Made by a program: the position numbers and the translations under genes
The notes under the pieces: generated by a model
The model's input: the letters and a program-made list of their open reading frames with translations, nothing else
Told to the model about the DNA's origin: nothing
Databases searched by the model: none
Source: an uncultured virus (IMG/VR IMGVR_UViG_3300025372_000013)
Taxonomy: Duplodnaviria > Heunggongvirae > Uroviricota > Caudoviricetes
IMG/VR virus record: IMGVR_UViG_3300025372_000013
Length of the DNA: 64,000 bases
Strand: one strand, 5' to 3'
Shown: positions 2,324 to 38,374 of the stretch, one piece after another
Position numbering within the stretch: the stretch's first letter is position 1
Layout of the letters: the number at the start of each line of letters is the position of its first letter

Positions 2324-2833
2324 ATGTCCACATCTGCAACCCTGGAAGCACCCGTATCGGTGACCGCTGACTTCAACGCATTGGCTGAGGCTATTGCACA
2401 GAAGTTCAACAATGAGAAGGTCTGGAAGATAGAGACTATTCTTCCGCTTTTCAAGCAGTTCCCCGATAAGACACCGGCTCAGGCTCTTGGTTTCTTTACC
2501 AAGCAAGCCTCTGTGCCGTTCGTCTTTGCGGCTTATTATGTCGCAAAGTCGGGTGTTTCTCCCCGAGTCATCTCAACCGACTTCATCGGTCGCAAGGTTG
2601 ATGACGAGGGTACCCGTGTCTATGAACTCATCAAGGTTCAGGACAATCCGACCTCTATGATTGCGGAGTTTATCCGTGTCAAGAGCGAGGCAGGTAAGCC
2701 AACTGTCAAGCAGTTGCCTAGCCTAAACACCGCTGCCAACGCTATCGAGCGTGCGCTCAAGGCGGTCAGCACCAACCCAGCCGAGGAGGCCCTCCTCAAA
2801 GCCCGTATCAAGGCTTTGGCTGAATCCCTTTAA
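2324..2833 (+). CDS. Hypothetical protein, first gene of the plus-strand cassette
   Basis: 169-aa ORF with GAGGG RBS and a downstream hairpin. Confidence 0.8.
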   Translation: MSTSATLEAPVSVTADFNALAEAIAQKFNNEKVWKIETILPLFKQFPDKTPAQALGFFTKQASVPFVFAAYYVAKSGVSPRVISTDFIGRKVDDEGTRVYELIKVQDNPTSMIAEFIRVKSEAGKPTVKQLPSLNTAANAIERALKAVSTNPAEEALLKARIKALAESL

Positions 2834-2845
2834 TGGGATAGAGGT

Positions 2846-2878
2846 TCTGGGGGTAGCAATGCCCCCAGACCCTTTCTA
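2846..2878 (+). terminator. Hairpin/terminator after first gene
   Basis: TCTGGGGGTA-GCAA-TGCCCCCAGA then CCCTTTCT. Confidence 0.5.
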
Positions 2879-3102
2879 TGCTCATAGGTAGCAGTATCTA
2901 TGGGTATAGATGGGGGACAACCTAGTGTGGCAACACGGTACAGACACCAGCACACTAGCCCTGAGAGAGACCCTCGAGTACCACCTCAAATTAGGCCACT
3001 GACCCTGTAGCCCTCACGCTGTGTAGGCGTAAGACCAGGCTATGGGGTTGGTGGCCTTCTTATTATCAGGTAACTAACACTAATGCTCAGAAAGGAGCAA
3101 TT

Positions 3103-3327
3103 ATGGCAATTCAATTAACACTATCTGCTGAGGACTACTTCAGCATTATCAATGTCCTACGGGACAAGTGTGGTTGCGGTAACTGCGAGAGTGTTATCTC
3201 TCGTATGGAAAGTTCTCGTCATCAGAAAGGTCAGTTCAAGCCTTGTTCTATCTGTGGTGACCCAGCACAGTACAAGGACAAGACAGGCATCTACTGCATC
3301 CTCTGTATTCCTGCACCAAAGCAGTAG
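3103..3327 (+). CDS. Small Cys-rich (zinc-finger) protein
   Basis: AAAGGAG RBS; CGCGNC, CSIC, CILC. Confidence 0.7.
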   Translation: MAIQLTLSAEDYFSIINVLRDKCGCGNCESVISRMESSRHQKGQFKPCSICGDPAQYKDKTGIYCILCIPAPKQ

Positions 3328-3370
3328 AGTTCCCCGCCGAAATTTCGCCCTCTCGGAAAGGAGAGAGAGT

Positions 3371-3604
3371 ATGAGCAAGACAGTATGGACAGTTAACAAG
3401 CCTCCTCGTGTGTATGAGGTGGCTAAGGCTGTAAAGTGTAATTCACCCGAAGTTATCTCCCTGCTCCGGCGTTGGGGATATACCGGCCGGTCTGCCAGTA
3501 GCCGTGTCCCATTGGCTGTGGCGCTGGACTTCCTTACCTACTTTGCCTCCAAGGGCTATGACGAGGTATGTCGTGAGCATACTAATTGGGTGATTACTTG
3601 GTAG
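3371..3604 (+). CDS. Stand-alone IF2_N-like domain protein
   Basis: PRVYEVAKAVKCNSPEVISLLRRWGYTGRSASSRV matches the IF2 N-terminal RVYELAK..G..S..L..L...G....SASS pattern; AAGGAG RBS before ATG 3371. Confidence 0.7.
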   Translation: MSKTVWTVNKPPRVYEVAKAVKCNSPEVISLLRRWGYTGRSASSRVPLAVALDFLTYFASKGYDEVCREHTNWVITW

Positions 3605-3744
3605 CAGCGTCAGTAGATTGTTTCCAACATAAACATTCCCCGCCGATTTTTCCAGGCTGTAGTCTTTGAGGGGTACACAGGTCGCCAAGTGCTGGCGTAA
3701 AGGTAATCCTGTGTGCCCCCTACCCTCTACAGAAAGGAAGAACC

Positions 3745-3852
3745 ATGCTTGCATGGATTATCACCGGACTAATCTGTATGGCTATCGTAGCCGTACTGAT
3801 TGACCAGCAGTACAAGATTGACCAGGAAGATGAAGATTGGAGAGTGAAGTGA
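3745..3852 (+). CDS. Small membrane peptide (35 aa)
   Basis: MLAWIITGLICMAIVAVLIDQQYKIDQEDEDWRVK; AAAGGA RBS; GTGA overlap with whiB. Confidence 0.6.
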   Translation: MLAWIITGLICMAIVAVLIDQQYKIDQEDEDWRVK

Positions 3853-4169
3853 GTGTTACAGCAAGAGTTGATGGTCGAATCCCGGTCTGGACAGACCTAT
3901 CTTGGCAGGATAGGGCTAGTTGCTTGGGAATGGACACAGAGATATTCTACTTCGATCCTAATCTCAAAGGACAGTCGAAAAGAAACAAAGCAAGTGTCGC
4001 TAAGGCTATCTGTGCGACTTGTCCAGTCAAGCTCGAGTGCCTCACCGATGCTGTCGTCAGAGATGATAGACACTCTATTCAAGGAGGTACTACCCCAGAG
4101 GAGCGAGGTTCTCTCCACGAGAGCGTTGCCTGCTGGCCATTAGAGAAGGTGCTAGCGTGTATCAAGTAA
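3849..4169 (+). CDS. whiB: WhiB-family transcription regulator 1
   Basis: W..RASC....TEIFY, AKAICATCPVKLECL, IQGGTTPEER; four conserved Cys. Confidence 0.93.
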   Translation: MSVTARVDGRIPVWTDLSWQDRASCLGMDTEIFYFDPNLKGQSKRNKASVAKAICATCPVKLECLTDAVVRDDRHSIQGGTTPEERGSLHESVACWPLEKVLACIK

Positions 4170-4405
4170 TCACACAGACCAGCACATATGAGGTCAACAC
4201 AAACAACCACACATTCCGCCGTATCCCAGACAAAGGCCCTGGCCTAGTTAGGGACTTAGAGTGGACACCATATATCAGCATTAAACACCCATTCATTGGC
4301 CAACCTATGACCATAGAGTGGTCACTTGCAGGTGTGCGCACAATTCGTACCACAACACCCGTTGTGGACATAGACCTACTGGAAGGAGGGGACAATGAAG
4401 GCTAG
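4157..4405 (+). CDS. Hypothetical protein
   Basis: Overlap-coupled 82-aa ORF. Confidence 0.6.
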   Translation: MYQVITQTSTYEVNTNNHTFRRIPDKGPGLVRDLEWTPYISIKHPFIGQPMTIEWSLAGVRTIRTTTPVVDIDLLEGGDNEG

Positions 4406-4538
4406 ACACAAGACTTGGCAATTTAATAAGTTCTGGTTATCTGTTGGTATAAGCAAGCAGTTTGCTATCAGTATCTATATCAACGAGATATTCGCAGGCA
4501 TTGATATTGGATGCTTCTACTTCTCCATCGAATACTAA
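4395..4538 (+). CDS. Small hypothetical protein (47 aa)
   Basis: MKARHKTWQFNKFWLSVG...; GGAGGG RBS; followed by terminator. Confidence 0.6.
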   Translation: MKARHKTWQFNKFWLSVGISKQFAISIYINEIFAGIDIGCFYFSIEY

Positions 4539-4550
4539 TCTTATGTGAGG

Positions 4551-4596
4551 AGGCGGGGTTGAGCGTGTGAGGGTACGCTCCCCCGCCTGTTTTTCT
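4551..4596 (+). terminator. Intrinsic terminator
   Basis: AGGCGGGG/CCCCGCCT stem with inner GAGCGT/ACGCTC, tail GTTTTTCT. Confidence 0.75.
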
Positions 4597-4857
4597 GTGT
4601 AATGCGATGCCTCCACAGCACACCCGATGAAAATCTCTGTGCTGTGCTGGCTTCGGATTACATAGGTAATCCAGGGTCATACACATCCGCACAAAAGAAA
4701 GAGCGTGGTAGGCGTTGAGCTAAGGCTCCGAACGAAATAGTTACGGCTATCTCTACTAAGGCTGAACCCAACTGGCCGATCCCCTTGTCCTCGTAAGACT
4801 TCGTGGGCTTACACGGCATTGTGCTGCTATCGAGTACTGCGGCATAGTATGCAAATG
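4597..4857 (+). ncRNA. Candidate structured non-coding RNA/leader
   Basis: Multiple stems (CACAGCAC/GTGCTGTG, GGATTAC/GTAATCC, GAGC/GCTC, ATAGT/GCTAT); no credible ORF. Confidence 0.4.
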
Positions 4858-4858
4858 A

Positions 4859-4889
4859 ACTCACAACGCACGGAGAGTATAAACCGTGT
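4859..4889 (+). other. H-type pseudoknot copy 1
   Basis: ACTC/GAGT stem; loop GCACGG pairs with CCGTGT after ATAAA. Confidence 0.5.
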
Positions 4890-4928
4890 ATGCACCAACA
4901 TAAACAACTACACAAAGGAGGGCCAGTA

Positions 4929-5342
4929 ATGGCTAGAATCACCAACCTCATCAACAAGGCTGATGCTCTCAAGCAGTTAAACGCTGCACTGAAGAAGGCT
5001 AACGCTGAGTATGATAAGGACTCCAAAGCATATGTGGCCGCTAAAGCCATCTATGACAAAGAGATAGTTGCATACAACAAAGCCGTTGTTGCAGCCGGTA
5101 TCGCACACCTAAAGTCTGTTGATACCAACAAAGCAAATCAATTCAGTGCTAGGTACGGAAGTACCTTTACACACGTTGACTTCAACGTCAACATTGGATT
5201 GAAAGAACCAAATCTAGACAAGGCACAGCCGCATAGAACTATGATTGAGCGTATTGAGAAGCAGATTCGTTCTGTTTCAATTATGTCCGGCGAAACCTTC
5301 AATGCCAGCATGTTGCATGACGATTTCTTCAACTGCTTGTAA
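4929..5342 (+). CDS. Hypothetical coiled-coil protein
   Basis: AAAGGAGG RBS before ATG 4929. Confidence 0.75.
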   Translation: MARITNLINKADALKQLNAALKKANAEYDKDSKAYVAAKAIYDKEIVAYNKAVVAAGIAHLKSVDTNKANQFSARYGSTFTHVDFNVNIGLKEPNLDKAQPHRTMIERIEKQIRSVSIMSGETFNASMLHDDFFNCL

Positions 5343-5394
5343 TACGGGTAACGCCGGTTGGTTTCTAAAGTTCTTCCTGAGGTAAAAGAACTCC

Positions 5395-5425
5395 TGTCCT
5401 AAGCATGACAAGGCTAAACTGCTTA
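5395..5425 (+). other. H-type pseudoknot copy 2
   Basis: TGTC/GACA stem; loop TAAGCA pairs with TGCTTA after TAAAC. Confidence 0.65.
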
Positions 5426-5426
5426 C

Positions 5427-5499
5427 GCCCTCATAGTTCAATGGATAGAACATCATCGTCCTAAGGTGAGTGTTGCCAGTTCGATTCTGGCTGAGGGCA
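5427..5499 (+). tRNA. tRNA-Arg (anticodon CCT), CCA not encoded
   Basis: Cloverleaf GCCCTCA/TGAGGGC, GTTC/GAAC, TCATC-GTCCTAA-GGTGA, GCCAG-TTCGATT-CTGGC; A20 Arg identity element. Confidence 0.93.
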
Positions 5500-5544
5500 C
5501 GGCACGGAGTGCGGCAGTCTTGTAGACGAAAACCTCCCTCGCCA

Positions 5545-5572
5545 AGAGCTGAGCATCTCTATAAACTGCTCA
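5545..5572 (+). other. H-type pseudoknot copy 3
   Basis: AGAG/CTCT stem; loop TGAGCA pairs with TGCTCA after ATAAAC. Confidence 0.65.
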
Positions 5573-5594
5573 TTACTAATAGAAAGGAGGAACT

Positions 5595-5861
5595 ATGGAA
5601 CCGGAAGACTTGCACGGTAAGTTTGATTTTATAGCCACACCAGAGCACAAGACCAACATCTTGCCACTCAGATGGTTTGCCAATGCTTGCAATCATCTAT
5701 CAAGTTTTGCGATAGAGCGAGCATTAGATCATGAAGACTTTGCCCATTACAACGGCACTGAACTATCACGAGCAGGATATAGATGGTGGAAGATTTGGGC
5801 CATCATCAACATTCCCTACGATAAGTGGGGCACAACCTATCTAGTAGATTGGCATAAATAA
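5595..5861 (+). CDS. Hypothetical protein
   Basis: AAAGGAGG RBS; 88 aa. Confidence 0.75.
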   Translation: MEPEDLHGKFDFIATPEHKTNILPLRWFANACNHLSSFAIERALDHEDFAHYNGTELSRAGYRWWKIWAIINIPYDKWGTTYLVDWHK

Positions 5862-6094
5862 TGCAACCAACACAAACAACCCTCTCACAGATAAAAGCCG
5901 AAGCCGCAAGCCGAGGCAACGTCGTATTCATTGATGATTCCCTACTTGAATCGGCCAAACGATTAGAATTCATTGTAGATGCAGTTGCCCACAAGGGACT
6001 CACCTACAAGGAAGCGTCAGCCTTATGGGCTGATGGCATTGACACTCTGCACACAAGTGTAGAGACAACAACAACCTCCGAAAGGGGCCTATAA
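5861..6094 (+). CDS. Hypothetical protein
   Basis: Abuts upstream stop; 77 aa. Confidence 0.6.
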   Translation: MQPTQTTLSQIKAEAASRGNVVFIDDSLLESAKRLEFIVDAVAHKGLTYKEASALWADGIDTLHTSVETTTTSERGL

Positions 6095-6095
6095 A

Positions 6096-6368
6096 ATGGC
6101 AAAAGGTAAAGGCGGAGTATCAACTCCAAAAGTAAACACATCAGGCGACCGTAAGAACGGTAAAGCCCGCAAGAAAAACCCAGGACCAGCGCAAATGGAG
6201 AAGACAAACTTCACGCATGTCAAGGGTCGTACACTAGCCAGCCACGAAAAGCGTGAGGCTTGGAAGGCCAAAGGTGGTCGTGCTAATCACGAATCAATTC
6301 CCCATTGGAAGACCGGCAAGGTTTACAAAGCACCGGTTCTTTCAGTATTTGCTAAGGCACTTGTATGA
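6096..6368 (+). CDS. Small basic protein
   Basis: K/R/G-rich 90 aa. Confidence 0.7.
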   Translation: MAKGKGGVSTPKVNTSGDRKNGKARKKNPGPAQMEKTNFTHVKGRTLASHEKREAWKAKGGRANHESIPHWKTGKVYKAPVLSVFAKALV

Positions 6369-6673
6369 GCAAGAAGCTTAAGCGCAAGCACATCATTGCT
6401 GCACTTGAGCAGCAAATCCTTGAAGAGCACGACAATCTGCATTGGGATGACCATCAGCACAGTCGTGCATATCACAGCGGGCTTATGGATGGCTTGGGGT
6501 TTGCCCTCAAGTTACTCAAGCCTGACTCAACTGTGCTTCCCCTCACATCAGTGTGGTTCGATGAGCCAACACAAACACACGAGCGTCAGCGTGAGCAACT
6601 TATTGAGATCCAATATGTTGACATGTCAGACCCTATTCCGGTAGGGTTGTTTGAAACAGTGGAGGCACCATGA
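6365..6673 (+). CDS. Hypothetical protein
   Basis: ATGA-coupled ORF. Confidence 0.7.
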   Translation: MSKKLKRKHIIAALEQQILEEHDNLHWDDHQHSRAYHSGLMDGLGFALKLLKPDSTVLPLTSVWFDEPTQTHERQREQLIEIQYVDMSDPIPVGLFETVEAP

Positions 6674-7422
6674 GTTACAAATTACGTTCATACCAATTCT
6701 GGTCTGACTATCTAGACGGTGGGCGTAAGAAATATATGCGCCCACTATACGATTACGGTATGGTCATTGAGAAGGTTAACAAGTTTCAGTTACCTGGCGG
6801 TGACCTACAAATCAAAATCAACTGGGCAGGCAATCTGCCTATTATCCGTGTCCACAGCGATGACTCGTTTACCCTACAAGGTGGTAAAGCTCAGAGTTTT
6901 TGGGGTGGCAGTTGGGATGTTCTTAAATCCCAAGGTGTGCGCTATCGCATGTGGAAATACACAGGCTTGCGTATTTATCAGCAAAACTACCAAATTAAGG
7001 TTGTAGACGTTGATGCAGGCCTTACCCCATCTAAGATACAAGGTTGTCGTCAATGTAAACAAACAGGTAAACAAGACGGTTGGTGTAGTCCAACTACTTG
7101 TTTTGATGGCGACTTCTATGACACACCTAACGGAGATTCTGTGTATGCATGCCCTGAACATCCTGATGCCCAATCACCACATGGATCGTGGCACAGGTTT
7201 CACCTTATAGCGTGCACCCACGGACAAATGAAAGGCCACACACTACCACGAAGCCAAGAGTGTTATTACTGTAAGGGTTCAGGCAAGCGTGACTATGGCA
7301 ACAAACCGATTTCTTTACTCTGGGATGGTTCCCCACTTAGGGTAAAGGATAGAAAGATAGTAAGAACACCCGTAACCGAACTAGAAAGGATGATGACTAT
7401 AAATGTCACCAATAGCTTATGA
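6670..7422 (+). CDS. Protein with DnaJ-type CxxCxxxG zinc motifs
   Basis: CRQCKQTGK and CYYCKGSGK; GGAGG RBS. Confidence 0.7.
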   Translation: MSYKLRSYQFWSDYLDGGRKKYMRPLYDYGMVIEKVNKFQLPGGDLQIKINWAGNLPIIRVHSDDSFTLQGGKAQSFWGGSWDVLKSQGVRYRMWKYTGLRIYQQNYQIKVVDVDAGLTPSKIQGCRQCKQTGKQDGWCSPTTCFDGDFYDTPNGDSVYACPEHPDAQSPHGSWHRFHLIACTHGQMKGHTLPRSQECYYCKGSGKRDYGNKPISLLWDGSPLRVKDRKIVRTPVTELERMMTINVTNSL

Positions 7423-7864
7423 CAGTACAGAGCCTATCAACTCAATGATAACTAGCTCTATCACAAACAGCATGGCAGATCATGCATCGGCAATCAACAG
7501 CATGATGTTACCTAGTACCTTCTTAAACTTTAGCGAAAGCAATAGTAACTACAAGGAGGCGATGATACACCGTTTGATTGACTCTCCTTTGTATCCATTG
7601 CAGCTAATGATTACCGGTGTTAGGTCATCTAAGGATGACTCAGCAAGACTGCGTACCTTTAGTGATTACGCAGCCGCTCTTGCCTATGTTGCCGGCAATA
7701 CAGACATGGCAAGAGAGATTGTACTTCGCAATAATCCTAAGTTAAGCAGCCCTTTTCTTAAGAACATTGCAGAGTCACTATCAATTGGTATCAGTCCTGA
7801 TACCTTTAAAGAGTTACTACGTGAGAGCACAGCAAAAGCAGCCGCTTTTCTGGCTAATGCGTAG
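7403..7864 (+). CDS. Hypothetical protein, possibly DUF4192-like C-terminal helical domain
   Basis: AALAYVAGN...A......NP......L...I.....GISP resembles 12884-13339. Confidence 0.45.
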   Translation: MSPIAYDSTEPINSMITSSITNSMADHASAINSMMLPSTFLNFSESNSNYKEAMIHRLIDSPLYPLQLMITGVRSSKDDSARLRTFSDYAAALAYVAGNTDMAREIVLRNNPKLSSPFLKNIAESLSIGISPDTFKELLRESTAKAAAFLANA

Positions 7865-7906
7865 CCAACACAAACAAACCAACCGCCTGAGAAAGGGAAA
7901 CATTCA

Positions 7907-8200
7907 ATGGCAATAGATGATCCGGTTGAACCTTGGTCAGATGCCCCAGCTCAAGACTATATTAGTTGCGATAGTTGCGGGTATAGCATCGGCAAAGCTA
8001 AACCTTTTACAAAAATCTACAATGTTAGATATCGTGGCTATCAGTACTTTCATGATAGCCACCTAGATTGTAGTGAGGCCTCAGCTAAGGTTAATAGCCG
8101 ACCTCGTATAGTTCTTAACCGCTTTAGAAAGGGACTCAACGAAGTCCTCTATGGAGACATAGAGAGCCAGTTAGTCTCAAATGATATAGCTGATATCTAA
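7907..8200 (+). CDS. Putative zinc-binding hypothetical protein
   Basis: CDSC...FH...DC. Confidence 0.6.
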   Translation: MAIDDPVEPWSDAPAQDYISCDSCGYSIGKAKPFTKIYNVRYRGYQYFHDSHLDCSEASAKVNSRPRIVLNRFRKGLNEVLYGDIESQLVSNDIADI

Positions 8201-8208
8201 TCAGCTAA

Positions 8209-8355
8209 GTTGTTGGTTGGCTAAGCTCACCGCAAAATAGACTGTTAATCCCCGCAACGATCGAGATGAGAATTGCGCACGTTGGTAATTCAATAGGCTG
8301 CTGAGCGGCATGTTATTAGTCACTGTTGCGCATTGGGGGTAAGCCAACCAACAAC
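8209..8355 (+). ncRNA. Structured RNA element closed by a perfect 14-bp stem
   Basis: GTTGTTGGTTGGCT/AGCCAACCAACAAC enclosing CGCAAC/GTTGCG, GAATTGC/GTAATTC, GCTGC/GCGGC. Confidence 0.55.
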
Positions 8356-8373
8356 CCTATTAAAGGAGGTCAT

Positions 8374-8616
8374 ATGTGTCACGAATGTGACGATGAAGGT
8401 TACGATGAAATGAGTTCTATTCCACCTGAAGAGATGGAAGAGTTCATAGATTTTGCATGCCTTCAAGTATCTAAAGTAATAGATAAAGCAGAAGAAAAAG
8501 GATTCCTTTACCAACTCATCACTGAGTGGCCAAGGGAAAGGCAAGCAGCATTCGCTCTTGCTACGATACTAGAGGCCCGACTAAACTCGGCCTGGCAGGA
8601 AGAAGAAGGGGAATAA
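8374..8616 (+). CDS. Small acidic hypothetical protein
   Basis: AAAGGAGGT RBS before ATG 8374. Confidence 0.75.
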   Translation: MCHECDDEGYDEMSSIPPEEMEEFIDFACLQVSKVIDKAEEKGFLYQLITEWPRERQAAFALATILEARLNSAWQEEEGE

Positions 8617-10005
8617 ATGGACATCTCAATGTTCGTTGAATCGTACGAACCAACTATGGGTAACCACCGTCGTCAGATATTGGTGGTCCCTTACAAGGGC
8701 GGTATCAATCTCTACTCTCGTGTGACTGACGGTACTAAGGGTACTCACAATAAGTGGGTATCAACAGACCTAGACACACTAGCCAATGAGGTTAAAGATA
8801 ACGAGCAGACAACTCGTCGCCCTGTTGGCGTGTATGTAACTGCTGCTGATGTGCGTGCTATTGATAGCAAGGGCTATTCTCCAGTCCTTACTACAAAAGC
8901 AGTAGGTGCACACAACAAGTCCATTGCAGAAGCTAAACCTGATGTGATGGATATCGTAACAAGCTTCTACTCTCAAATCGAAGTAGGAGATGATCAACTG
9001 GAGGAATACGTGATAGATAATCGAGCAACAACTAGTCCGCTAGTAGTTCCCGTGCCAACACAAACACTTGATGCCCCGGCCCAACAAGCCGCTCCGTCAT
9101 TCAATGTGTCGCTTGCCACAGTTCCACCAATTCACTTAGCTCAACGCTATGTGCATCGCAAGGTCTACAATGTCGAAGACTTTGCTATCTTTGATACCGC
9201 TCGTGCTGACGGTATCAACGTTCTTATCTACGGCCCAACCGGTCCTGGTAAGACAACTGCTGTAGAAGCGTGGGCCGCAGAGCGTGGCTTGCGTATGGCT
9301 ACAGTGTCCGGCAATGCATCCATGGAGTCACGTCAGTTGTTTGGCGGCTTCATTCCTGACGGCAACGGTAGTTATGGTTGGATTGATGGTCCAGTAACTG
9401 ACGTTGTTCGCAACGGTGGCGTCTTGCTTCTCGATGAGATGAACTTCATCAGTCCCAAGATCTACACCACCCTTTACCCACTAACCGATGGTCGTCGTAC
9501 CATCACCTTGCTTGACCACATGGGCGAGACAATCACAGCGCATCCTGATCTTACGATCTTTGCGACAATGAATCCAGACTATGTAGGTACAACGCCTCTC
9601 AACTACGCAATGCGTAACCGCTTCGACATTCAGTTGATGTGGGATTACGATGATGCCGTAGAAGAGAAGCTTGTCAACAGCAAGGCTCTTCGTACGCTTG
9701 TCAAGTCTCTGCGTACAGAAGCTGCCAAGGGTCAGTACGACACCCCTATCTCTACCAACATGCTGATCGAGTTCAGCGACTTTGTAACCAAGCTTGGTTA
9801 CGACTTCGCAGTCGAGAACTTCATCGCTCACTTTGGCTCTGACGAGCAAGCATCTGTGCGTCTGGTATTCCAGACTCATCAGTACAACATCCAATCTGAT
9901 TTCGGTATTGCACCGAATATAAAGAACGATGAGTCAGAGTCAACACAAACACAGGCCGAACGCTTAAGCGCCTGGGTTGCAACAGCTAATTCAATGTCAG
10001 TCTAA
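8617..10005 (+). CDS. MoxR/CobS-like AAA+ ATPase
   Basis: Walker A GPTGPGKT, Walker B LLLDE, ATMNP, AMRNRF arginine finger. Confidence 0.93.
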   Translation: MDISMFVESYEPTMGNHRRQILVVPYKGGINLYSRVTDGTKGTHNKWVSTDLDTLANEVKDNEQTTRRPVGVYVTAADVRAIDSKGYSPVLTTKAVGAHNKSIAEAKPDVMDIVTSFYSQIEVGDDQLEEYVIDNRATTSPLVVPVPTQTLDAPAQQAAPSFNVSLATVPPIHLAQRYVHRKVYNVEDFAIFDTARADGINVLIYGPTGPGKTTAVEAWAAERGLRMATVSGNASMESRQLFGGFIPDGNGSYGWIDGPVTDVVRNGGVLLLDEMNFISPKIYTTLYPLTDGRRTITLLDHMGETITAHPDLTIFATMNPDYVGTTPLNYAMRNRFDIQLMWDYDDAVEEKLVNSKALRTLVKSLRTEAAKGQYDTPISTNMLIEFSDFVTKLGYDFAVENFIAHFGSDEQASVRLVFQTHQYNIQSDFGIAPNIKNDESESTQTQAERLSAWVATANSMSV

Positions 10006-10016
10006 GGAGGTGGTAA

Positions 10017-11855
10017 ATGTTTAACGACAACATCAACGAGCGTTATCAAGATGTGCGTGACGAGGACACTCAGTTACGTTCTATCCGACTTAACGCTCTA
10101 TGTCGTGTTTACGAGCAAGCTGACAGAGTCATCACCGGTGATCCAGTTATGGTTCACGTAGTGGCTGATGGTCCTGCACCAGCATGGTCAGACGGACAAG
10201 CAATTTACATCAACGCCAGTGAGATCGAAGATATTGATCTCGAAGCGTTATCTCAAGTCAATGGCTTGAATTTCCACGAGCTAGCTCACCATCTGTATAC
10301 TCCCCGCAAGGGTACGGTATTCATGAAGGAAGTTATTGACCGTGGCCTCATGCAAGCAGCCAATATGCTAGAAGATCAACGTATCGAAACATTGCTTGTA
10401 GCACGTTATCCATCAGTAGCGCCGTTCTTAATTGCAACGTGTGCTCGCTATCTAGGTAGTACTCAAGACCAAGCCGAAGGTGTTTATATGCTTCTTCGGG
10501 GTCGTAGGTACTTACCTATTCAAATACGTGAGGCATTCAGGGACTTGTTCTACGAGCCTGCGCTCATCCCTGTCATTGCTGACATCGTAGATCAGTATCG
10601 GTTGCTTGTATTTCCCCGTGATTACGACAAAGCAATCGAGCTTATCCAACGTTGGAACGATGAGGTACTCAATCAGCTGCCTAACCCACAAGATCTTCCC
10701 AAGGGTATGACCGGCTGTACTGATCGTGACGCTGTAAGCAAAGGTCGTCCTGAGCCTGGCAAAGCACAGGAGAAAGATGCACAACGTGCAGCAGGTATGG
10801 GTAAAGCGGAGTCAACAACTCCCAACACAAACAAACCCAGCCAGCCAAAACCAGCGCCAACTAACCAACAAGAAGCACTCGATATGGCCAATGCCAAACC
10901 AACAGACGGTGAGATCAAAGCACCACCATCTATGGCGCCAGGCACCGGTCATCACGAGAGTTTCGGTGGCTTACCTGATAGTGTCCATAATATGCTTGAT
11001 GAAGTTATTGACTCTATCATGTCTAGTAAGGATGTACTACAAGATCTCAAGACCAAGCAAAAAGTAATCGTTGGTGGTGACGGTAAACATACCGATACTA
11101 TCAAGCGTGGTCGTTACGACACAGCGGCTGTCCCATCAGACGCAATGGTTACTTATCGCAAGTTTGCACGTGAGCTAGAACGCTTGCGTGACGAGTGCGA
11201 GCCAGCATGGCACAAGGAAGAAGCTAGTGGCAAGCTCAATGTTCAACGTGTTATTCGTGGCTGCGAGATTGACCAAGCCTTCGATCGTTGGGATGAGGGT
11301 ACAGACGGTACGGATGTAGAAGCTGTCATTCTTGTTGACCGTTCTGGCTCTATGACTGGCGGCAATGACCGTGATGCATCTATTGCATCCTGGACTATCA
11401 AGCGTGCACTAGAAGGCATCGGCGCTCCGGTGACCGTGTACTCGTTTGACGATGAAGCTGAGTTGGCATACAATCGCACAGAGCTTGCCAACAAAACTCA
11501 TTACAAGTTCATCTATGGCAGTGGTGGCACCGAACCTTACAACGCCCTGCTTGCTGCAGAACAAGTTCTTCTATCATCTCGTAAGAAGAACAAAATGCTG
11601 TTCATCGTTACCGACGGTGCCTTCGGCACTAAAAGTGACGAGATCATTGACCGCATGAGTAAGCGTGGCATTCTTACCGCCATGTCTTTAATCATGGGCG
11701 ACAACGACATGCAGTGGTACAAAGACCGCTACAACTACACTGACGACACATTCAGACATGGTGTAGAAGTCTTTGCCCGCATCACCTCAGCTCGTGATCT
11801 CTTGCCATTTGCAAGATCTGTAGTTACCGGAGCAATCAGAAAGAGAGGAAGATAA
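10017..11855 (+). CDS. CobT-like vWA protein with N-terminal HExxH zincin-like domain
   Basis: FHELAH, NMLEDQRIE, MIDAS DRSGS...T...TDG; adjacent to MoxR ATPase. Confidence 0.88.
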   Translation: MFNDNINERYQDVRDEDTQLRSIRLNALCRVYEQADRVITGDPVMVHVVADGPAPAWSDGQAIYINASEIEDIDLEALSQVNGLNFHELAHHLYTPRKGTVFMKEVIDRGLMQAANMLEDQRIETLLVARYPSVAPFLIATCARYLGSTQDQAEGVYMLLRGRRYLPIQIREAFRDLFYEPALIPVIADIVDQYRLLVFPRDYDKAIELIQRWNDEVLNQLPNPQDLPKGMTGCTDRDAVSKGRPEPGKAQEKDAQRAAGMGKAESTTPNTNKPSQPKPAPTNQQEALDMANAKPTDGEIKAPPSMAPGTGHHESFGGLPDSVHNMLDEVIDSIMSSKDVLQDLKTKQKVIVGGDGKHTDTIKRGRYDTAAVPSDAMVTYRKFARELERLRDECEPAWHKEEASGKLNVQRVIRGCEIDQAFDRWDEGTDGTDVEAVILVDRSGSMTGGNDRDASIASWTIKRALEGIGAPVTVYSFDDEAELAYNRTELANKTHYKFIYGSGGTEPYNALLAAEQVLLSSRKKNKMLFIVTDGAFGTKSDEIIDRMSKRGILTAMSLIMGDNDMQWYKDRYNYTDDTFRHGVEVFARITSARDLLPFARSVVTGAIRKRGR

Positions 11856-12046
11856 TGTACACAATCTACGACAGCCTAACAGAGACACTAATAGAGGTGT
11901 TCAACGACTATGAATCAGCACAGATGTTCCTGCTTCATATCTCAGATGAACTAAATGATGGTGGTGCCAATCTTAGTATTGAAGCCATCACTCCTGCACA
12001 CGAGTGGGCTCAAGACAACGGCATAACGTTGGCAGCACTAGCATGA
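11855..12046 (+). CDS. Small acidic hypothetical protein
   Basis: TAATG-coupled ORF. Confidence 0.65.
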   Translation: MYTIYDSLTETLIEVFNDYESAQMFLLHISDELNDGGANLSIEAITPAHEWAQDNGITLAALA

Positions 12047-12195
12047 CAAGCCGGCAAGAAGATCCAGCAACATGGTTTAGTGAGATGTTGAGACAAAGAG
12101 AAATTGATCAGCTCAACACAAACAAAGCCATAGTACACAAGATGCTAATCAAACATGGGGCTGAAGATCTCATCCCCATGCTATTGGAGGACTAA
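12043..12195 (+). CDS. Small hypothetical protein
   Basis: ATGA-coupled; MTSRQEDPATWF... Confidence 0.6.
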   Translation: MTSRQEDPATWFSEMLRQREIDQLNTNKAIVHKMLIKHGAEDLIPMLLED

Positions 12196-12314
12196 TGATC
12201 AAATGCAACTTATGTAAGAACGTGCTAGGTCAAGACGACTCGTACGTAGTTCATAGTCAAACAGTAACGTGTTGGGATTGTTACTTTGGAGATGACACGG
12301 GAGAACGATGGTAA
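12195..12314 (+). CDS. Small zinc-finger protein (39 aa)
   Basis: MIKCNLCK...TCWDCYF; GGAGG RBS. Confidence 0.65.
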   Translation: MIKCNLCKNVLGQDDSYVVHSQTVTCWDCYFGDDTGERW

Positions 12315-12814
12315 ACACATTCCTACCATACGCAGACTTCAAGCAAGTAGCGCAATCCTTAGACGATAGGAGACTCGGCAAGCAACGTGTAGAAGCGTTG
12401 CAAATTCTGAGGGCCAACCTGGGTCTAACTGTAGGGTGGCGCAACCATCCTGCCGCAGTAATGTGGCGAGGGCATGAAGGTCTACTAGCCAAATACACCA
12501 TCACAATATGTAACGAATGGGTAAAACGTGGCTACGTAGATAACACAAAGCAACAGGTAATCGAACTCATGAAACAGTATAACCTCAAACCAATCAAAAA
12601 GCCTTGGTGGCTTGGGGCAAACACATTGCATGAGAGTCATCAGTCAAACTTAAAGCGTAAGCTTCCTGAGCATTACGACTTTGATGTATCTGATGACATG
12701 CCATACCAATGGCCAACACCAGAGGGTACATTCCGTACGACTCAAAAGGATAAGAATGAACCTAAGAAAATCAAAAGAGCAACTAAGAAGATTGTTGGAG
12801 CTGAGGAGATCTAA
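12308..12814 (+). CDS. Pyrimidine-dimer DNA glycosylase-like (MSMEG_6728/DenV-related)
   Basis: TFLPY.DF...A..LD.RRLGKQRVEALQI, GWRNHPA..MWRG, H.SHQSNL. Confidence 0.88.
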   Translation: MVNTFLPYADFKQVAQSLDDRRLGKQRVEALQILRANLGLTVGWRNHPAAVMWRGHEGLLAKYTITICNEWVKRGYVDNTKQQVIELMKQYNLKPIKKPWWLGANTLHESHQSNLKRKLPEHYDFDVSDDMPYQWPTPEGTFRTTQKDKNEPKKIKRATKKIVGAEEI

Positions 12815-12887
12815 CGCAGCTTCAGCAGTACCAAACAAGAAAGCTTACAGCCGTAAGCGTAAACACCCAAAAAAGGAGATAGAGTGA
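12756..12887 (+). CDS. Small basic ArfA-like peptide (43 aa)
   Basis: AAAGGA RBS; RRSNAASAVPNKKAYSRKRKH. Confidence 0.5.
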   Translation: MNLRKSKEQLRRLLELRRSNAASAVPNKKAYSRKRKHPKKEIE

Positions 12888-13339
12888 TAACTACAACCCG
12901 TAAGGAAGCAGTTACTCTCATTGAAGAGAGCATCAATAACATCATTCCTCTTGAAGATGAGAGGCTTGAAAAGGTCATTTACGCAGTTAACAATGACCTT
13001 GCCGTCAGGGATTGGGTCTTGGGCATGCCTAACAGATTTACCTTAGAAGAATCCATTGACTTTGTTAGATATATGGCAGTACATACAACAGCACTGGACA
13101 GTGTGCCATTTATCACAATCAACGCCGTGTTTGAATATGAACGTGGCAACAGAGACAGAGCTATTCTTATGATTGACTATGTTAATGCGGTTAACGATAG
13201 GTACCCATTGGCACAGTTAATTACAAGAACTTTTGATGCAGGCTGGGCGCCAGAAATGTATGCTCAAATGCGTCAAGATTTAGATGACCGGGTAGTAAAA
13301 GACTGCAATGATGAACTAATCGGAGAGGAAGATAACTAA
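12884..13339 (+). CDS. DUF4192-like protein
   Basis: D..VRD motif and YE.G....A.........Y.LA.L.......G..P tail. Confidence 0.6.
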   Translation: MITTTRKEAVTLIEESINNIIPLEDERLEKVIYAVNNDLAVRDWVLGMPNRFTLEESIDFVRYMAVHTTALDSVPFITINAVFEYERGNRDRAILMIDYVNAVNDRYPLAQLITRTFDAGWAPEMYAQMRQDLDDRVVKDCNDELIGEEDN

Positions 13340-13479
13340 TGTCAAACAACATCATATGGCAAGCAGCAATAACAGCAGATATGGTAGAAGACTGGACAGA
13401 GGATGAGATCGAAATGCTCATAGCTGATCTAGATGACGCAGTTAAAGCAACCTATGAAGATTGGGAGCTACGTGACTAA
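13339..13479 (+). CDS. Small acidic protein (46 aa)
   Basis: MSNNIIWQAAITADMVEDWTEDEIEMLIADLDDAV...; TAATG coupling. Confidence 0.65.
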   Translation: MSNNIIWQAAITADMVEDWTEDEIEMLIADLDDAVKATYEDWELRD

Positions 13480-13663
13480 ATACAGAGTAACCATACATGA
13501 GCACATAATCAGTGACTTATGGGTAGATGCAGAGAACAAAGAAGAAGCCAAAGCCGTAGCTGAAGAGCACATATCGGAAGGCTTCAACGGATGGGTTGTA
13601 GATGACATGGCCGGTTGGATTGAGACCGGCAGCATCTATGACGAGTCCGGTGGGGAAGTTTGA
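13472..13663 (+). CDS. Small acidic hypothetical protein
   Basis: GTG start with GGGAG RBS; V.AENKEEA.. Confidence 0.65.
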   Translation: MTKYRVTIHEHIISDLWVDAENKEEAKAVAEEHISEGFNGWVVDDMAGWIETGSIYDESGGEV

Positions 13664-13688
13664 CCAAAACAAACAACTTCGCTATACT
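13660..13688 (+). promoter_or_regulatory. SigA-type promoter
   Basis: TTGACC-17 nt-TATACT; spacer carries a one-mismatch copy of the 12-mer repeat. Confidence 0.75.
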
Positions 13689-13708
13689 AGAAACAGAAGG
13701 GGGTACAA

Positions 13709-13915
13709 ATGAGCAACGAAAGCGATCTCTACGATCTAAAGCTTACTTTCAGAGTAAAGCTTAAGAAGTGGCGCATAGATGATCAGCACGACCCTGACAA
13801 TCAAGAGTGGTGCCTGTGGGTATATGACAGGAACCTACAACAATGGGTACAAACCACTCGTGATTTGGACAGGCCGGGCGAAGAAACAACTATTGAGGCC
13901 ATCCACATATACTGA
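13709..13915 (+). CDS. Hypothetical protein
   Basis: AAGGGGG RBS downstream of promoter. Confidence 0.65.
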   Translation: MSNESDLYDLKLTFRVKLKKWRIDDQHDPDNQEWCLWVYDRNLQQWVQTTRDLDRPGEETTIEAIHIY

Positions 13916-13944
13916 TGGCCTCTGAGACAGGGGGAGAATATGTA

Positions 13945-14181
13945 ATGCAGTTCGCACAATTCACAATCAAAACCAAAGAGATAAAGAAGCTGGTAAACGC
14001 TTTAGAGACTGCAGGCTTAGAGGTCAGCATGACCAATGGCAAGCATCACATAAAAGTTGTTAACCCAGAAACCAGAAAGGTAGTCTTCTTTGGGCAACAA
14101 TCTTTGGGAGACCGAAGAGCCGGCAAAAATATCCTACGGGATCTAAAGAAAGTCGGATTCCACGAACAAATCAACCTATAA
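13945..14181 (+). CDS. HicA-like (dsRBD-fold) mRNA interferase
   Basis: E..KLV..L...G..V......H.KV..P.....V......D.R..KN...DL...G pattern. Confidence 0.65.
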   Translation: MQFAQFTIKTKEIKKLVNALETAGLEVSMTNGKHHIKVVNPETRKVVFFGQQSLGDRRAGKNILRDLKKVGFHEQINL

Positions 14182-14191
14182 GGAGGGCCAA

Positions 14192-14458
14192 ATGGCCAAG
14201 GTAACAAAGACGCTAGAAGTAACACTTACAAAGAACACCTCTGTAGAGAAGGGTGGTGCATGGCTGATGGTAATTACGGATAGCTTTGGTACAAACCACT
14301 CAGCTTGGGCTAACCCATCTGCAGCTAAGCGATATCTAAAAACCTATGTACTGGCAACCACACCACGCAAGTCAATCAAGATGGTGGTGGCCGCTACAAA
14401 CGGTGAGGAAAAGCCAACCCATTTCAAGGGTGAGTTAACATGGAAGGCAGATGCATGA
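14192..14458 (+). CDS. Hypothetical protein
   Basis: AAGGAGG RBS. Confidence 0.75.
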   Translation: MAKVTKTLEVTLTKNTSVEKGGAWLMVITDSFGTNHSAWANPSAAKRYLKTYVLATTPRKSIKMVVAATNGEEKPTHFKGELTWKADA

Positions 14459-14592
14459 TGATGGATATGGAAACCGTACTACCCCGTACTTGCAACATGT
14501 GTCATGGTACGGGGGTTGTCTATTGGGAATCCAATGACGACTTTGATGTAGAAGAATGTGAATGCCAATACAAAGGAGAAAACAATGCCTAA
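14455..14592 (+). CDS. Small DnaJ-type zinc-finger peptide
   Basis: CNMCHGTG...ECEC. Confidence 0.6.
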   Translation: MMMDMETVLPRTCNMCHGTGVVYWESNDDFDVEECECQYKGENNA

Positions 14593-14794
14593 GTTCCGTG
14601 TACAGTTCGATGCAACCCGTCAAGGTACCCTTATCTTTGATGCAGAAGATAGGGAGCACGCATTAGAAATATATAACGGCCTAGTCGAGGGTACAACTTA
14701 CCCCGATGAGATTGACAGCTATGAAGATACAGAAGTATCAGACAGCACATACTATGAGTTAACCGATAATTCCGGCAAACACATAGCTGACTAA
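14585..14794 (+). CDS. Small acidic hypothetical protein
   Basis: AAAGGAG RBS before ATG 14585. Confidence 0.7.
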   Translation: MPKFRVQFDATRQGTLIFDAEDREHALEIYNGLVEGTTYPDEIDSYEDTEVSDSTYYELTDNSGKHIAD

Positions 14795-14807
14795 TATGTT
14801 GGCAAGC

Positions 14808-14845
14808 AAAAGCCCCCGGCTCTTAATTGAGTCGGGGGCAATTGT
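14808..14845. terminator. Bidirectional terminator at convergence of the two gene blocks
   Basis: AAAA-GCCCCCGGCTC-TTAATT-GAGTCGGGGGC-AATTGT. Confidence 0.8.
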
Positions 14846-14870
14846 TTGTGTTGGGCGGCTAGCTATGCCT

Positions 14871-25527: not shown

Positions 25528-25547
25528 CTTTATCTCCTTCTGCTAAT

Positions 25548-25576
25548 AGTATACAAGGTAATACAAGTACTTGCAA
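25548..25576 (-). promoter_or_regulatory. SigA-type promoter
   Basis: TTGCAA-17 nt-TATACT. Confidence 0.65.
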
Positions 25577-29402: not shown

Positions 29403-29452
29403 ATTGCCCCCAATGTTTAGATTAACAGGGCCCTGTTACAGGCCCTGCTAAT

Positions 29453-29464
29453 AGTATATCCGAT
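29453..29464 (-). promoter_or_regulatory. Promoter ATCGG-A-TATACT
   Basis: Repeated motif; 16-bp palindrome at 29423-29438 just downstream. Confidence 0.6.
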
Positions 29465-31250: not shown

Positions 31251-32098
31251 TTTGCCTCCTGGAATGGGGCGCAACGTGTGCAACCCTTTTCAATGTTTAT
31301 ACTACAAAGCGGTGGGCGGTCGTTGTTAGCAGCCCACGCTACATCTAGAGCCTTATCAAAAATATCTTTTGTAAACTCTGGATTGTAGGTTACAACAAAC
31401 TCTTTGTATTCTTGATTAGCCTTAAGCTCATAGATAAATACAATCTCTTTGGGAGCAGATTCAAGAAGTCCTTCTTCAACCATTAGATGGCAAAGATGTA
31501 GATATACCTGACCTTGCAGCTGATGAGCACGGAAGGGAGTCTTTATGTTTTTCCAAGCAATCTCTACATTCCCATTGGCCTGCTCCATGATAGCCGGAGC
31601 TTCCATGCGAATACCGCCGGAGCCAATAGACTTGATCTCAATTAAGCAGTCATCCCCAAGACCTCTGATCCAACCATCAGCGTGTCCTCGAATCATGTGC
31701 TTATCGCTACGGAGTGGTACTTCCGTATAGTTCTTAGATAAAGAAACTCCCCAAAGGCGCTCCTCACCAATCAACCAAGTGCCATAGAGCACACCCATCT
31801 CATTAAACCAATTCTGCCACTTGGCGTGGATAGTATGGCCTTCTGCAAAGATAGATGCTAAACGAGCTGTAGGCTTATCCCGTGTTTCTACGTAGTTACC
31901 TTTGAGTGCGTGATACTGTGCAAGAGCGCACCAATCATCTTTAATAATATCGGATGGGTGGATATAGCTCATATCACGATCATCAAAAGGACGTGACAAC
32001 ACATGTCGTTCTACAGCACCCATCAAGCGAGTCTCACGCTTACTGGTTGCTAGGAATGCTTTTAAATCTTTACTGGCAATAGTCTTAGGTTTGCCCAT
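31247..32098 (-). CDS. Cas4/AddB-like PD-(D/E)XK exonuclease
   Basis: HPS....WC, G..IH, GHADG, EIKS, Q.Q.Y, C-terminal C...C..C. Confidence 0.85.
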   Translation of the reverse strand: MGKPKTIASKDLKAFLATSKRETRLMGAVERHVLSRPFDDRDMSYIHPSDIIKDDWCALAQYHALKGNYVETRDKPTARLASIFAEGHTIHAKWQNWFNEMGVLYGTWLIGEERLWGVSLSKNYTEVPLRSDKHMIRGHADGWIRGLGDDCLIEIKSIGSGGIRMEAPAIMEQANGNVEIAWKNIKTPFRAHQLQGQVYLHLCHLMVEEGLLESAPKEIVFIYELKANQEYKEFVVTYNPEFTKDIFDKALDVAWAANNDRPPLCSINIEKGCTRCAPFQEAK

Positions 32099-37443: not shown

Positions 37444-37911
37444 TTACTCGGTTTCTTGACTATGAATAAGCGTCCATGATTCCATCAATTCAATTGATAG
37501 ATCTGGATGCTTATTCCAGTCAACTCTGGGGGCACCGATGAGGCCCCGGTCTTGGAAACTTTTGATAGCAGATTCAATCATAGCTTTGGAATACATACGC
37601 CATCCTGGCTTCTTTACTCCATCTACAATCATAGACTTGAGACGATAGGGTGCACGTGGTATATAACCCTTGCGTTCCCAAAGTCTTACTGTCACTATCG
37701 GTCTTCCCAATGCTTGGCACAATGACCCAACACTGTAAAGTTCTACCGTCTTTCCATTCGGCAGATTTTTAACCTGTGGACTTGCATCCCAGGAATCTAA
37801 ATTAACTGGCTTCTTAGGAGCTACATCTGGATCTAAAGGACGACGCTTTCTTTTAGAACCAGGATAGTACTCATCCAGGTCCTCAAAGAACTTGTCTACC
37901 TTATCTTCCAT
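37444..37911 (-). CDS. MerR-like HTH DNA-binding protein
   Basis: YSVG.L..ALGR...T.R.WE..G.IP...R.Y. Confidence 0.8.
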   Translation of the reverse strand: MEDKVDKFFEDLDEYYPGSKRKRRPLDPDVAPKKPVNLDSWDASPQVKNLPNGKTVELYSVGSLCQALGRPIVTVRLWERKGYIPRAPYRLKSMIVDGVKKPGWRMYSKAMIESAIKSFQDRGLIGAPRVDWNKHPDLSIELMESWTLIHSQETE

Positions 37912-38362: not shown

Positions 38363-38374
38363 AGGATACCCGAT
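38363..38374 (-). promoter_or_regulatory. Promoter ATCGG-G-TATCCT
   Basis: Repeated motif. Confidence 0.55.

Follow-up and report, generated by a model that had tools for sequence, protein, structure and literature searches.

In this study, we analyzed a stretch of 64,000 nucleotides from an uncultured tailed virus (IMG/VR record IMGVR_UViG_3300025372_000013, Caudoviricetes), hereafter the window, in which a non-palindromic, G-free 12-mer word, YCAACAYAAACA, recurs along a block of rightward genes. This block, or cassette (2324..14794, +; ~12.5 kb), was delimited from maps of open reading frames (ORFs) together with Pfam, PHROGs and tRNA calls; it is the only long rightward block, and leftward genes lie on both sides of it. 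On the basis of Pfam and PHROGs matches, it contains a WhiB gene (3837-4169, +), an AAA_5 ATPase (8617-10005, +) and a vWA protein (10017-11855, +), in addition to a tRNA-Arg (CCT; 5427-5500, +), which was the only Rfam match, a Pyr_excise pyrimidine-dimer glycosylase, small ORFs without known function and a terminal four-gene sub-operon. Nearly all other genes of the window are leftward, including those for a class II ribonucleotide reductase, a queuine-tRNA-ribosyltransferase-like protein, RecA/UvsX, a DNA polymerase, helicases and a primase, as well as lysis, baseplate, tube and sheath genes. A 100-kb relative (G002) was collinear with the window at ~87% nucleotide identity, and the 36 kb of it outside the window's extent encode, leftward, capsid, portal, terminase and glycosyltransferases. 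The virus is thus a large, contractile-tailed phage, and it is a phage of an actinobacterium because WhiB genes are present; the public runs containing it are freshwater metagenomes. No integrase or recombinase, RNA polymerase, sigma factor or NusG-like family could be identified by Pfam in 87 ORFs of the window and 54 ORFs of the part of G002 beyond it, and therefore the phage shows no lysogeny genes and must use the RNA polymerase of its host. No PHROG repressor was present among 59 proteins scanned, a scan that included no direct search with a gp71-type sequence.

A search of the whole window on both strands identified 10 exact copies of YCAACAYAAACA on the plus strand (3624-12113) and one on the minus strand (14843-14854), with zero exact copies in the remaining ~50 kb. 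In 100 dinucleotide-preserving shuffles, the mean number of copies was 0.00 and the maximum 0. When one mismatch was allowed, 13 sites were found versus 1.47 expected, the only additions being 13664 (+, CCAAAACAAACA) and 50579 (+, CCTACATAAACA). The word also headed the ranking of 9- to 12-mers, and CAACACAAACA was the most repeated 11-mer in the window on either strand. All 12 window copies, including the degenerate one at 13664, are oriented with local transcription. These results agree with the original prediction, made from the letters of the window, in that every coordinate it gave was correct, including those of the inverted and the one-mismatch copy. Its claim by eye that the word is absent from the other 50 kb holds for exact copies, with only the one-mismatch site at 50579 in that part, and the comparison of k-mer counts with a shuffled background (11 exact copies versus none) bears out the enrichment it reported. 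It had also assigned the reading frames properly, namely PTQT or STQT at 5867, 6566, 9055 and 9940, and NTN at 4194, 10822 and 12113.

The individual sites are located as follows. Site 1 (3624..3635, +; CCAACATAAACA) is intergenic, 19 nt past the stop codon of ORF 3152-3604, and site 2 (4194..4205, +; TCAACACAAACA) lies 25 nt past the WhiB stop codon, in the 5' part of ORF 4157-4405. Site 3 (4895..4906, +; CCAACATAAACA) is found 25 nt upstream of an ATG at 4932 that is preceded by an AAGGAGG box; it falls inside a gene in the longest-ORF call only (frame 2), and 4932 is the likelier start. Site 4 (5867..5878, +; CCAACACAAACA) corresponds to codons 3-6 of ORF 5861-6094, and site 5 (6566..6577, +) lies in a conserved 102-amino-acid gene (6365-6673), where its position is kept in relatives. 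Site 6 (7865..7876, +) begins right after the TAG of 7403-7864, 30 nt before the ATG at 7907. Sites 7 (9055..9066, +) and 8 (9940..9951, +) are in the AAA ATPase gene, the former in a linker and the latter, the STQT copy, near the C-terminus, whereas site 9 (10822..10833, +) occupies a hypervariable linker of the vWA gene. The AAA and vWA linkers are both variable and rich in insertions and deletions, as the original prediction had suspected from their linker-like appearance. Site 10 (12113..12124, +; TCAACACAAACA) is within ORF 12004-12195, site 11 (13664..13675, +; CCAAAACAAACA) carries a C5>A change, and site 12 (14843..14854, -) is the single inverted copy.

The 12-mer can be divided into two hexamers in tandem (YCAACA, then YAAACA), behind which A-W-C-C is weakly preferred. 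The sole common changes are C>T at positions 1 and 7, that is, at the first base of each hexamer, and C>T at positions 2, 5 and 11 was never observed, which disfavours simple RNA-RNA pairing. When the flanks were aligned with gaps, no conservation outside the 12-mer appeared. Without gaps, a profile built on 69 non-redundant contexts (the window and 15 relatives) showed weak preferences for A at +12 (51/69) and for C at +14 (42/69) and +15 (36/69), and few T up to +22. Twelve specified bases with about five weaker ones are a usual site size for a DNA-binding protein.

Relatives were collected with the AAA protein, which yielded 15 IMG/VR loci (68-96% identity), two further IMG/VR loci and 23 metagenome loci, five of the last being the same contigs as IMG/VR records or as the window itself. 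The identical word in the identical layout was found in all 17 IMG/VR loci and all 23 metagenome loci, with 5-12 copies per locus, all on the cassette strand, and with one inverted copy wherever a locus extended to the end of the cassette (in L015, with one mismatch). Five whole records (G001-G005; 76-100 kb) each had 7-11 co-oriented copies plus one inverted copy in one block of ~11-12 kb, versus 0-1 copies of a backwards control word; in one of them (G005) a further copy lay outside the block, at 72557 (-). The orthologous junction of site 6 has a copy in 13 of 13 genomes shown. In the 10 diverged relatives shown, the counterpart of site 10 lies elsewhere, in the junction after the vWA gene, right before AAGGAG. 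The word is kept at its places in the AAA linker, at the site 6 junction, in the promoter and at the terminator, a check of orthologous positions that came out in favor of the original prediction. Among phage isolates, megablast gave no match, and the only blastn match was Brevibacterium phage Cantare, with 65% identity over 489 nt of the AAA gene. The 12-mer is absent from Cantare. The part of Cantare examined (30001-80000) has a repeat of its own, TTGACACTGTAAA, at five intergenic places on the gene strand, and this repeat is promoter-like.

Several observations strongly support selection on the nucleic acid rather than on the protein. In the AAA gene, the codons CCA ACA CAA ACA were identical in 18 of 18 sequences, whereas conserved P, L and V residues upstream used 2-4 codons each. 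Only 25 of 250 degenerate columns with an invariant residue used one codon in these 18 genes, and four of the 25 were the consecutive codons of the motif. In the vWA gene, where the word lies in the indel-rich linker, 17 of 18 genomes translate it as NTN, whereas L011 uses the adjacent frame and translates it as PTQT. Of 16 AAA sequences, only four, those of the window and L001-L003, have the second copy (9940) at this alignment position, within a variable tail, which indicates that sites have been gained as well as kept; L012 has a copy of its own in the last codons of its AAA gene. With the invariant synonymous positions in the AAA gene, the frame switch in the vWA gene and the family-wide layout, the proposal of a region-wide cis-signal selected as nucleic acid appears well founded. 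The spacing of copies was also examined. Gaps between copies were more even than random (coefficient of variation 0.20-0.30; simulated p 0.0001-0.0013) in 7 of 10 lineages, and the tendency was weaker in L007 and L016, in both of which a one-mismatch copy fills a long gap, and in L004 (four sites). It should be noted that the ten lineages share orthologous sites, so that these are not ten independent tests.

Three kinds of placement are conspicuous: gene junctions, a promoter and a terminator. With naive ORF calls in the window and 15 loci, 46 of 131 exact plus-strand copies lay between ORFs, mostly 0-1 nt past a stop codon, and many others lay only a few codons from starts that had been over-called. 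Two conserved junctions have the word 0-1 nt past the stop codon, ending at, or about 10 bases before, the next ribosome-binding site, as in TAA-CCAACACAAACA-AAGGAG-N6-ATG. The distance from word to start codon is not fixed, and varies from 10 nt to none at all.

A sigma-A-like promoter (13660..13688, +), predicted from the consensus, precedes the terminal four-gene sub-operon; it consists of TTGACC, a 17-bp spacer and TATACT, and the one-mismatch copy at 13664 lies within the spacer, as had been predicted. The spacer of the corresponding TTGAC-N17/18-TAnnnT promoter is filled by the word in 16 of 17 IMG/VR relatives, where an exact copy begins at TTGAC or one base beyond it and stops 6-7 bp short of TAnnnT. 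The C5>A variant arose independently in the window and in L016, and the orthologue of 13664 in close relatives is an exact copy. Promoter boxes accompany 16 of the 145 exact plus-strand copies examined, one per genome, and the other copies had no -35 or -10 box at a fixed distance. Promoters of the sigma-A type (TTGAC-N17-19-TAnnnT) also precede several leftward genes. One gene of the sub-operon (13915-14181) encodes an 88-amino-acid HicA-like protein with a GKHH motif (Pfam HicA_toxin E 0.00038, below the cut-off; phrog_2089), which is 78-88% identical across the family, and the 88-amino-acid beta-rich protein that follows could be its partner.

At the other end, a bidirectional terminator hairpin (14812..14839; 11 pairs, 9 of them G-C) separates the cassette from the leftward ribonucleotide reductase gene, and the inverted copy lies 3 bases beyond it, in accordance with the original prediction. 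On the plus strand, this copy forms part of the T-rich tail of the cassette terminator. In the leftward sense, it lies past the reductase stop codon, 3-5 nt before the conserved G+C-rich hairpin, in 15 of 15 contexts. The polarity of the word flips exactly at the convergent junction.

A scan with a MerR-like protein of the phage (described below), from which the best 80 of 417 encoding contigs were kept, reached three genomes missed by the AAA scan (G006-G008), with the same word in the cassette and beside a similar terminator. Two further genomes (G009 and G010) had no copy and are ~54% fragments that probably stop short of the cassette. This clade has four extra copies per complete genome, two sense and two antisense. 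One extra sense copy follows a stop codon and precedes a hairpin (G007 and G008). In G006 and G007, 2 of ~10 copies per genome are antisense, both within peptides conserved between the two genomes. One of them, exact (G006 37392, G007 38135), encodes the baseplate peptide VYVGQGVAF, which is conserved in the window also; the orthologue in the window is 50579-50590, antisense in a baseplate-wedge gene, where VYVG is encoded and a synonymous change breaks the word. This copy is probably a coding look-alike. The second antisense copy, likewise exact (G006 21233, G007 53638), lies in a clade-specific gene for 171 amino acids, encodes WVHVCV and is kept despite diverged flanks. The antisense copies of this clade may be coding look-alikes, and we give them little weight either way.

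Because the word is invariant, the protein that reads it would be expected to be well conserved. The best candidate is the product of 37444..37911 (-), a 155-amino-acid MerR/Xis-like winged-helix protein as inferred from sequence and modeling. Its gene is the second one (after 37913-38344) downstream of a TTGACA...TAGAAT promoter at 38402. The Pfam MerR match (E 0.0042, 17.3 bits) was under the cut-off of 28.2, Atlas feature matches of 0.96-0.97 were obtained with viral clusters automatically named 'HTH merR-type', and the structure model had a mean predicted local distance difference test (pLDDT) score of 78.6. In a VIA comparison (Z 4.2-5.8), most of the best 20 matches were MerR-family or excisionase-type DNA-binding domains. 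Among 28 homologues (69-88% overall identity), residues 70-108, which cover the second helix of the helix-turn-helix and the wing, were invariant except for position 75 (V, L or I), and residues 76-91 were invariant and gapless. The protein has 77-99% identity in three diverged genomes, and 77-81% versus G003 and G004. Other small proteins well kept versus these two genomes are the HicA-like protein (78-81%), a basic 90-amino-acid protein (6096-6368; 75-80%), a ribbon-helix-helix protein (38374-38535; 76-78%) and a second WhiB (32085-32423; 86%). An Atlas search with the basic protein gave no usable match, and comparison of the HicA-like and MerR-like proteins with PDB sequences gave no match or chance-level ones only. 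Several readers had been proposed originally. The MerR-like protein stands out among them, with its invariant DNA-binding segment and fold matches; the product of 2324-2833 is unlikely, as G002 lacks a match to it and its identity in G003 and G004 is just 28-33%, and the WhiB of the cassette is not universal in relatives.

The host side was surveyed in 401 sampled Actinomycetes genomes, two of them unpublished (G019 and G275, one copy each), on which the result does not rest. Copies were present in just 58 genomes, with 1-3 in nearly every one, much as for the backwards control; hence no enrichment could be observed in these chromosomes, among which the host of the phage itself may not be represented. 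One actinomycete with 69% G+C has seven co-oriented exact copies in 45 kb (L160, G234:C1:2874000-2884000). The clusters in G234 and in a second genome (G022) are unrelated sequence, in which 3 of 3 and 2 of 3 fetched copies, respectively, share repeated flanks, and the three G234 copies fetched all lie inside a longer dispersed repeat. The G234 cluster looks like a sequence coincidence and not a phage system. The proposed binding protein is most likely encoded by the phage, and a host-encoded reader is possible.

We propose that the array represents operator/stoperator-like sites for an asymmetric-site DNA-binding protein that silences the cassette, and we give this reading an even chance of being correct. 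It is favoured because the layout matches the described sites of Cluster A mycobacteriophage repressors. These repressors recognise asymmetric 13-mers, termed operators where they lie in promoters and stoperators where they occupy short gaps between genes, and the sites are oriented with transcription, their reversal abolishing function (PMC9283540). As in the systems of L5 gp71 and the TipsytheTRex repressor (PMC9283540), the phage studied here has an asymmetric site of 12-13 bp, a copy in a predicted early promoter and some of its copies in intergenic gaps, with the orientation following transcription and with dependence on host RNA polymerase. Unlike the Cluster A sites, those found here are confined to one ~12-kb block rather than spread over both genome arms, several of them are intragenic, the spacing is even at ~1 kb, the promoter copy fills the spacer instead of overlapping the -35 box, the word is invariant between lineages, and no integrase or known immunity repressor was found in the ORFs scanned. 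On this reading, the array would work like stoperators, but it fails to show their genome-wide spread and their context of temperate immunity, in which the reader is an immunity repressor of the gp71 type with a helix-turn-helix and a Stoperator domain; even spacing, linker copies in two frames and a single inverted copy at a convergent terminator are additions to the stoperator pattern.

In the proposed mechanism, the rightward cassette of this ~100-kb phage is probably early, and the strong sigma-A-like promoter at 13660 would initiate less readily with a protein bound to the copy in its spacer. The same protein, bound to co-oriented copies ~1 kb apart, would halt elongating polymerases. These copies occupy minimal gaps behind stop codons or, in long genes, tolerant linkers, and the inverted copy, pointing with the leftward operon, would keep leftward transcription from proceeding, in antisense, through the cassette. 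As the protein accumulated, the whole cassette would be shut off. The sites, their polarity and conservation, the selection on the nucleic acid and the placement at promoter and terminator are observed here; we infer a protein reader that acts on the DNA duplex, serves as a repressor and corresponds to the MerR/Xis-like product of 37444-37911. A protein reader rather than RNA-RNA pairing is indicated by the 12 strict positions with weak extra ones, the limited C>T change and the nesting in the promoter. With regard to precedents, Gp36, a MerR-family protein encoded by the lytic mycobacteriophage D29, recognises direct repeats and acts as a repressor of the genes that follow its site (PMC12266134). 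Gp36, BldC (PMC5859096) and phage excisionases are MerR-like winged-helix proteins reported to bind asymmetric sites or direct repeats, and the candidate models as a winged helix of the MerR/Xis type; unlike the array, the Gp36 sites are GC-rich direct repeats at few places and not a kilobase-spaced polar series.

A number of observations weigh against this interpretation. In the window, the G-free word always stands in the mRNA sense, and it immediately precedes ribosome-binding sites and a terminator hairpin, a pattern that a signal at the RNA level would produce as well. Sites cover only ~11-12 kb of records 89-100 kb long, or ~12% of the genome, which is unlike L5; the AAA, vWA and 102-amino-acid gene copies are truly intragenic, and many sites are inside genes. 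The first ~1.3 kb of the cassette, consisting of gene 2324-2833 followed by a hairpin (2846-2869), has no copy of the word, and a main cassette promoter was looked for and not found. Even spacing is not predicted by a plain roadblock model, and the operator model leaves this spacing, the intragenic copies and the restriction to one block unexplained. As for the candidate reader, the best Foldseek matches were MerR proteins with weak scores (E 0.018-0.1), and fold-match scores this low can reflect a common arrangement, as the tool itself warns. Classical MerR proteins are dimers that bind palindromes. The gene is a core gene, which trivially co-occurs with the word. Profile scans of IMG/VR and metagenomes for lineages with a different word gave family members only, all with the same word, and thus no changed-motif lineage was available for covariation of motif and reader. 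In addition, the word has not drifted between lineages whose proteins are only ~70% identical, which fits a host-encoded reader as well.

Even spacing, intragenic copies and restriction to one block keep three other explanations alive. One of them is that the word is a tag at the RNA level, a site in sense transcripts for an RNA-binding protein or an endoribonuclease that times the translation or decay of early messages, similar in spirit to T4 RegA and RegB. In a version of it, the enzyme cuts between cistrons and removes the protective 3' hairpin of the reductase message, with the HicA-like protein as a possible reader. All window copies are in the mRNA sense and free of G, junction copies fall in the ribosome-free gap between stop codon and Shine-Dalgarno box, and the leftward copy sits in the 3' untranslated region of the reductase message just ahead of the hairpin in every context, with a second set of stop codon, word and hairpin in G007 and G008; moreover, transcripts from the 13660 promoter, which drives the HicA-like gene, would be without the word. 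However, the precise nesting between -35 and -10 in nearly all relatives suggests a DNA operator, and, with copies inside the AAA and vWA genes, the phage would be cleaving or blocking long messages of its own. To our knowledge, few proteins are precedents for reading so strict a code of 12 nt in a single strand. It is T and not G that is scarce in the downstream flank, and the word was no more accessible in native than in shuffled flanks (unpaired probability 0.70 vs 0.73, Wilcoxon p 0.95; first 45 of 84 non-redundant contexts). We regard the RNA tag as unlikely. A related comparison is with the start-associated sequences of Cluster K mycobacteriophages, reportedly a conserved 13-mer that closely precedes the start codon in some of the genes. 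Here, too, several copies end at a ribosome-binding site, but others are deep in the AAA and vWA genes, in the promoter spacer and before the terminator, and they follow distance rather than starts. Another explanation, to which we assign a low probability, is that the word, read either from the non-template strand in the transcription bubble or from the nascent RNA, repeatedly loads a factor onto polymerase, either anti-terminating or terminating, with the ~1-kb spacing as its run length. The strict sense polarity would be accounted for, and the even spacing with copies forced into linkers suggests a need per distance and not per gene. The RfaH-ops and lambda N-nut systems also use short polar elements, in sense orientation only, in long operons, and ops is 12 nt, the size of the word. 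On the other hand, an operon leader contains only one or two ops or nut elements, which depend on a NusG paralogue or on N protein, whereas copies here run throughout the operon, with none at its very start, and no NusG/KOW, RfaH-like, sigma or polymerase gene was found in the phage ORFs scanned with Pfam. A copy just before the terminator of the leftward operon would be senseless for an anti-terminator, and transcription from the promoter would start only beyond the copy in its spacer. Among the four mechanisms that the original prediction put forward, the stoperator-like one fits best, given asymmetric, transcription-oriented sites, a promoter copy and minimal intergenic gaps. Processive antitermination and sites for RNA-binding proteins gained no support: no NusG-like protein, sigma factor or RNA polymerase was found in 141 ORFs, and native flanks did not raise accessibility over shuffled ones.

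It is also conceivable, although similarly improbable, that the sites form a polar barrier or insulator, whose bound protein lets co-directional machines pass and blocks head-on polymerases or replication forks. Head-on traffic would come from the ~85-kb leftward block, and at the convergent end the inverted copy would have the opposite role. In such a case, which we hold to be no less doubtful, the array would be a distance-metered polar device, ~1 per kb, shielding the sole counter-running operon, that is, an analogue of Ter or fork barriers within coding sequence. Systems resembling it are the Tus-Ter fork trap and the rDNA fork barrier. Tus-Ter, Chi and KOPS are polar words whose orientation flips at a point of convergence, as in the array. 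No long block other than the cassette is transcribed counter to the remainder of the genome, and a run of evenly spaced spare copies would resemble serial barriers. Chi and KOPS are 8-mers enriched across host genomes, whereas the 12-mer was at chance level in the sampled Actinomycetes. Furthermore, the promoter-embedded copy would be unexplained, the 11:1 ratio of orientations is opposite to that needed by a fork trap if the origin is at the divergent end, GC skew showed no correspondence with the cassette borders, and Pfam scans of the phage ORFs revealed no Tus- or RTP-like family. Least probable, and in our view very hard to sustain, is a device for DNA entry or packaging, either a ratchet and stop for stepwise entry or the marker of a long terminal repeat, as the original prediction had also offered. 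The block is ~12% of the genome, looks early and has the scale of the first-step region of T5, where transfer in steps is known. However, the two records classed by IMG/VR as having direct terminal repeats end differently, one far from the cassette and the other inside it, and contigs from public runs bridge both cassette borders. Contig depth, a crude measure, was alike inside and outside (15.7-16.8 vs 13.8 in X1), and we know of no mechanism that reads sequence during ejection.

If the operator/stoperator-like reading is true, orientation-dependent silencing, for which temperate Cluster A mycobacteriophages are the best documented case, would extend to large and seemingly lytic phages that infect abundant uncultured Actinobacteria of lakes, and its role there would be to turn off a single block of genes and not to maintain lysogeny. 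The known model does not account for the even kilobase spacing or for the word in linkers in two frames, which point to a requirement per distance. The phage would offer a clean experimental system, with an invariant 12-mer, one promoter with a spacer site, one inverted copy at a terminator and few conserved small proteins. In annotation, the word can serve as a ready marker for this phage family and its early block. A single-string search of the literature for the 12-mer returned, among the papers listed, only unrelated primer or eukaryotic contexts and no description in a phage.

Some additional features of the window were noted. Upstream of the first cassette gene, a tRNA-like minihelix (2226-2282) has a 7-bp acceptor-like stem, CTCTCAG...CTGAGAG, around a perfect T-arm, GGGGTTCGAATCCCC; neither ARAGORN nor Rfam called it, and it could be a tRNA-like leader element or the remnant of an attachment site. 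Within the cassette, 6670-7422 encodes a conserved cysteine-rich protein of 250 amino acids without a family match, which has two CxxCxGxG-like motifs as in DnaJ zinc fingers. Next to the reductase gene, the queuine-tRNA-ribosyltransferase-like protein (17085-18554; phrog_887, E 1e-54; no Pfam match) may, we presume, be a DpdA-type enzyme for 7-deazaguanine modification of DNA. Finally, TATACTATTAGCA occurs three times on the minus strand (847-859, 25541-25553 and 29446-29458), ahead of leftward genes or hairpins. It comprises a -10-like TATACT followed by a conserved ATTAGCA, with a -35 box that is weak at best, and it may mark a second class of promoters.

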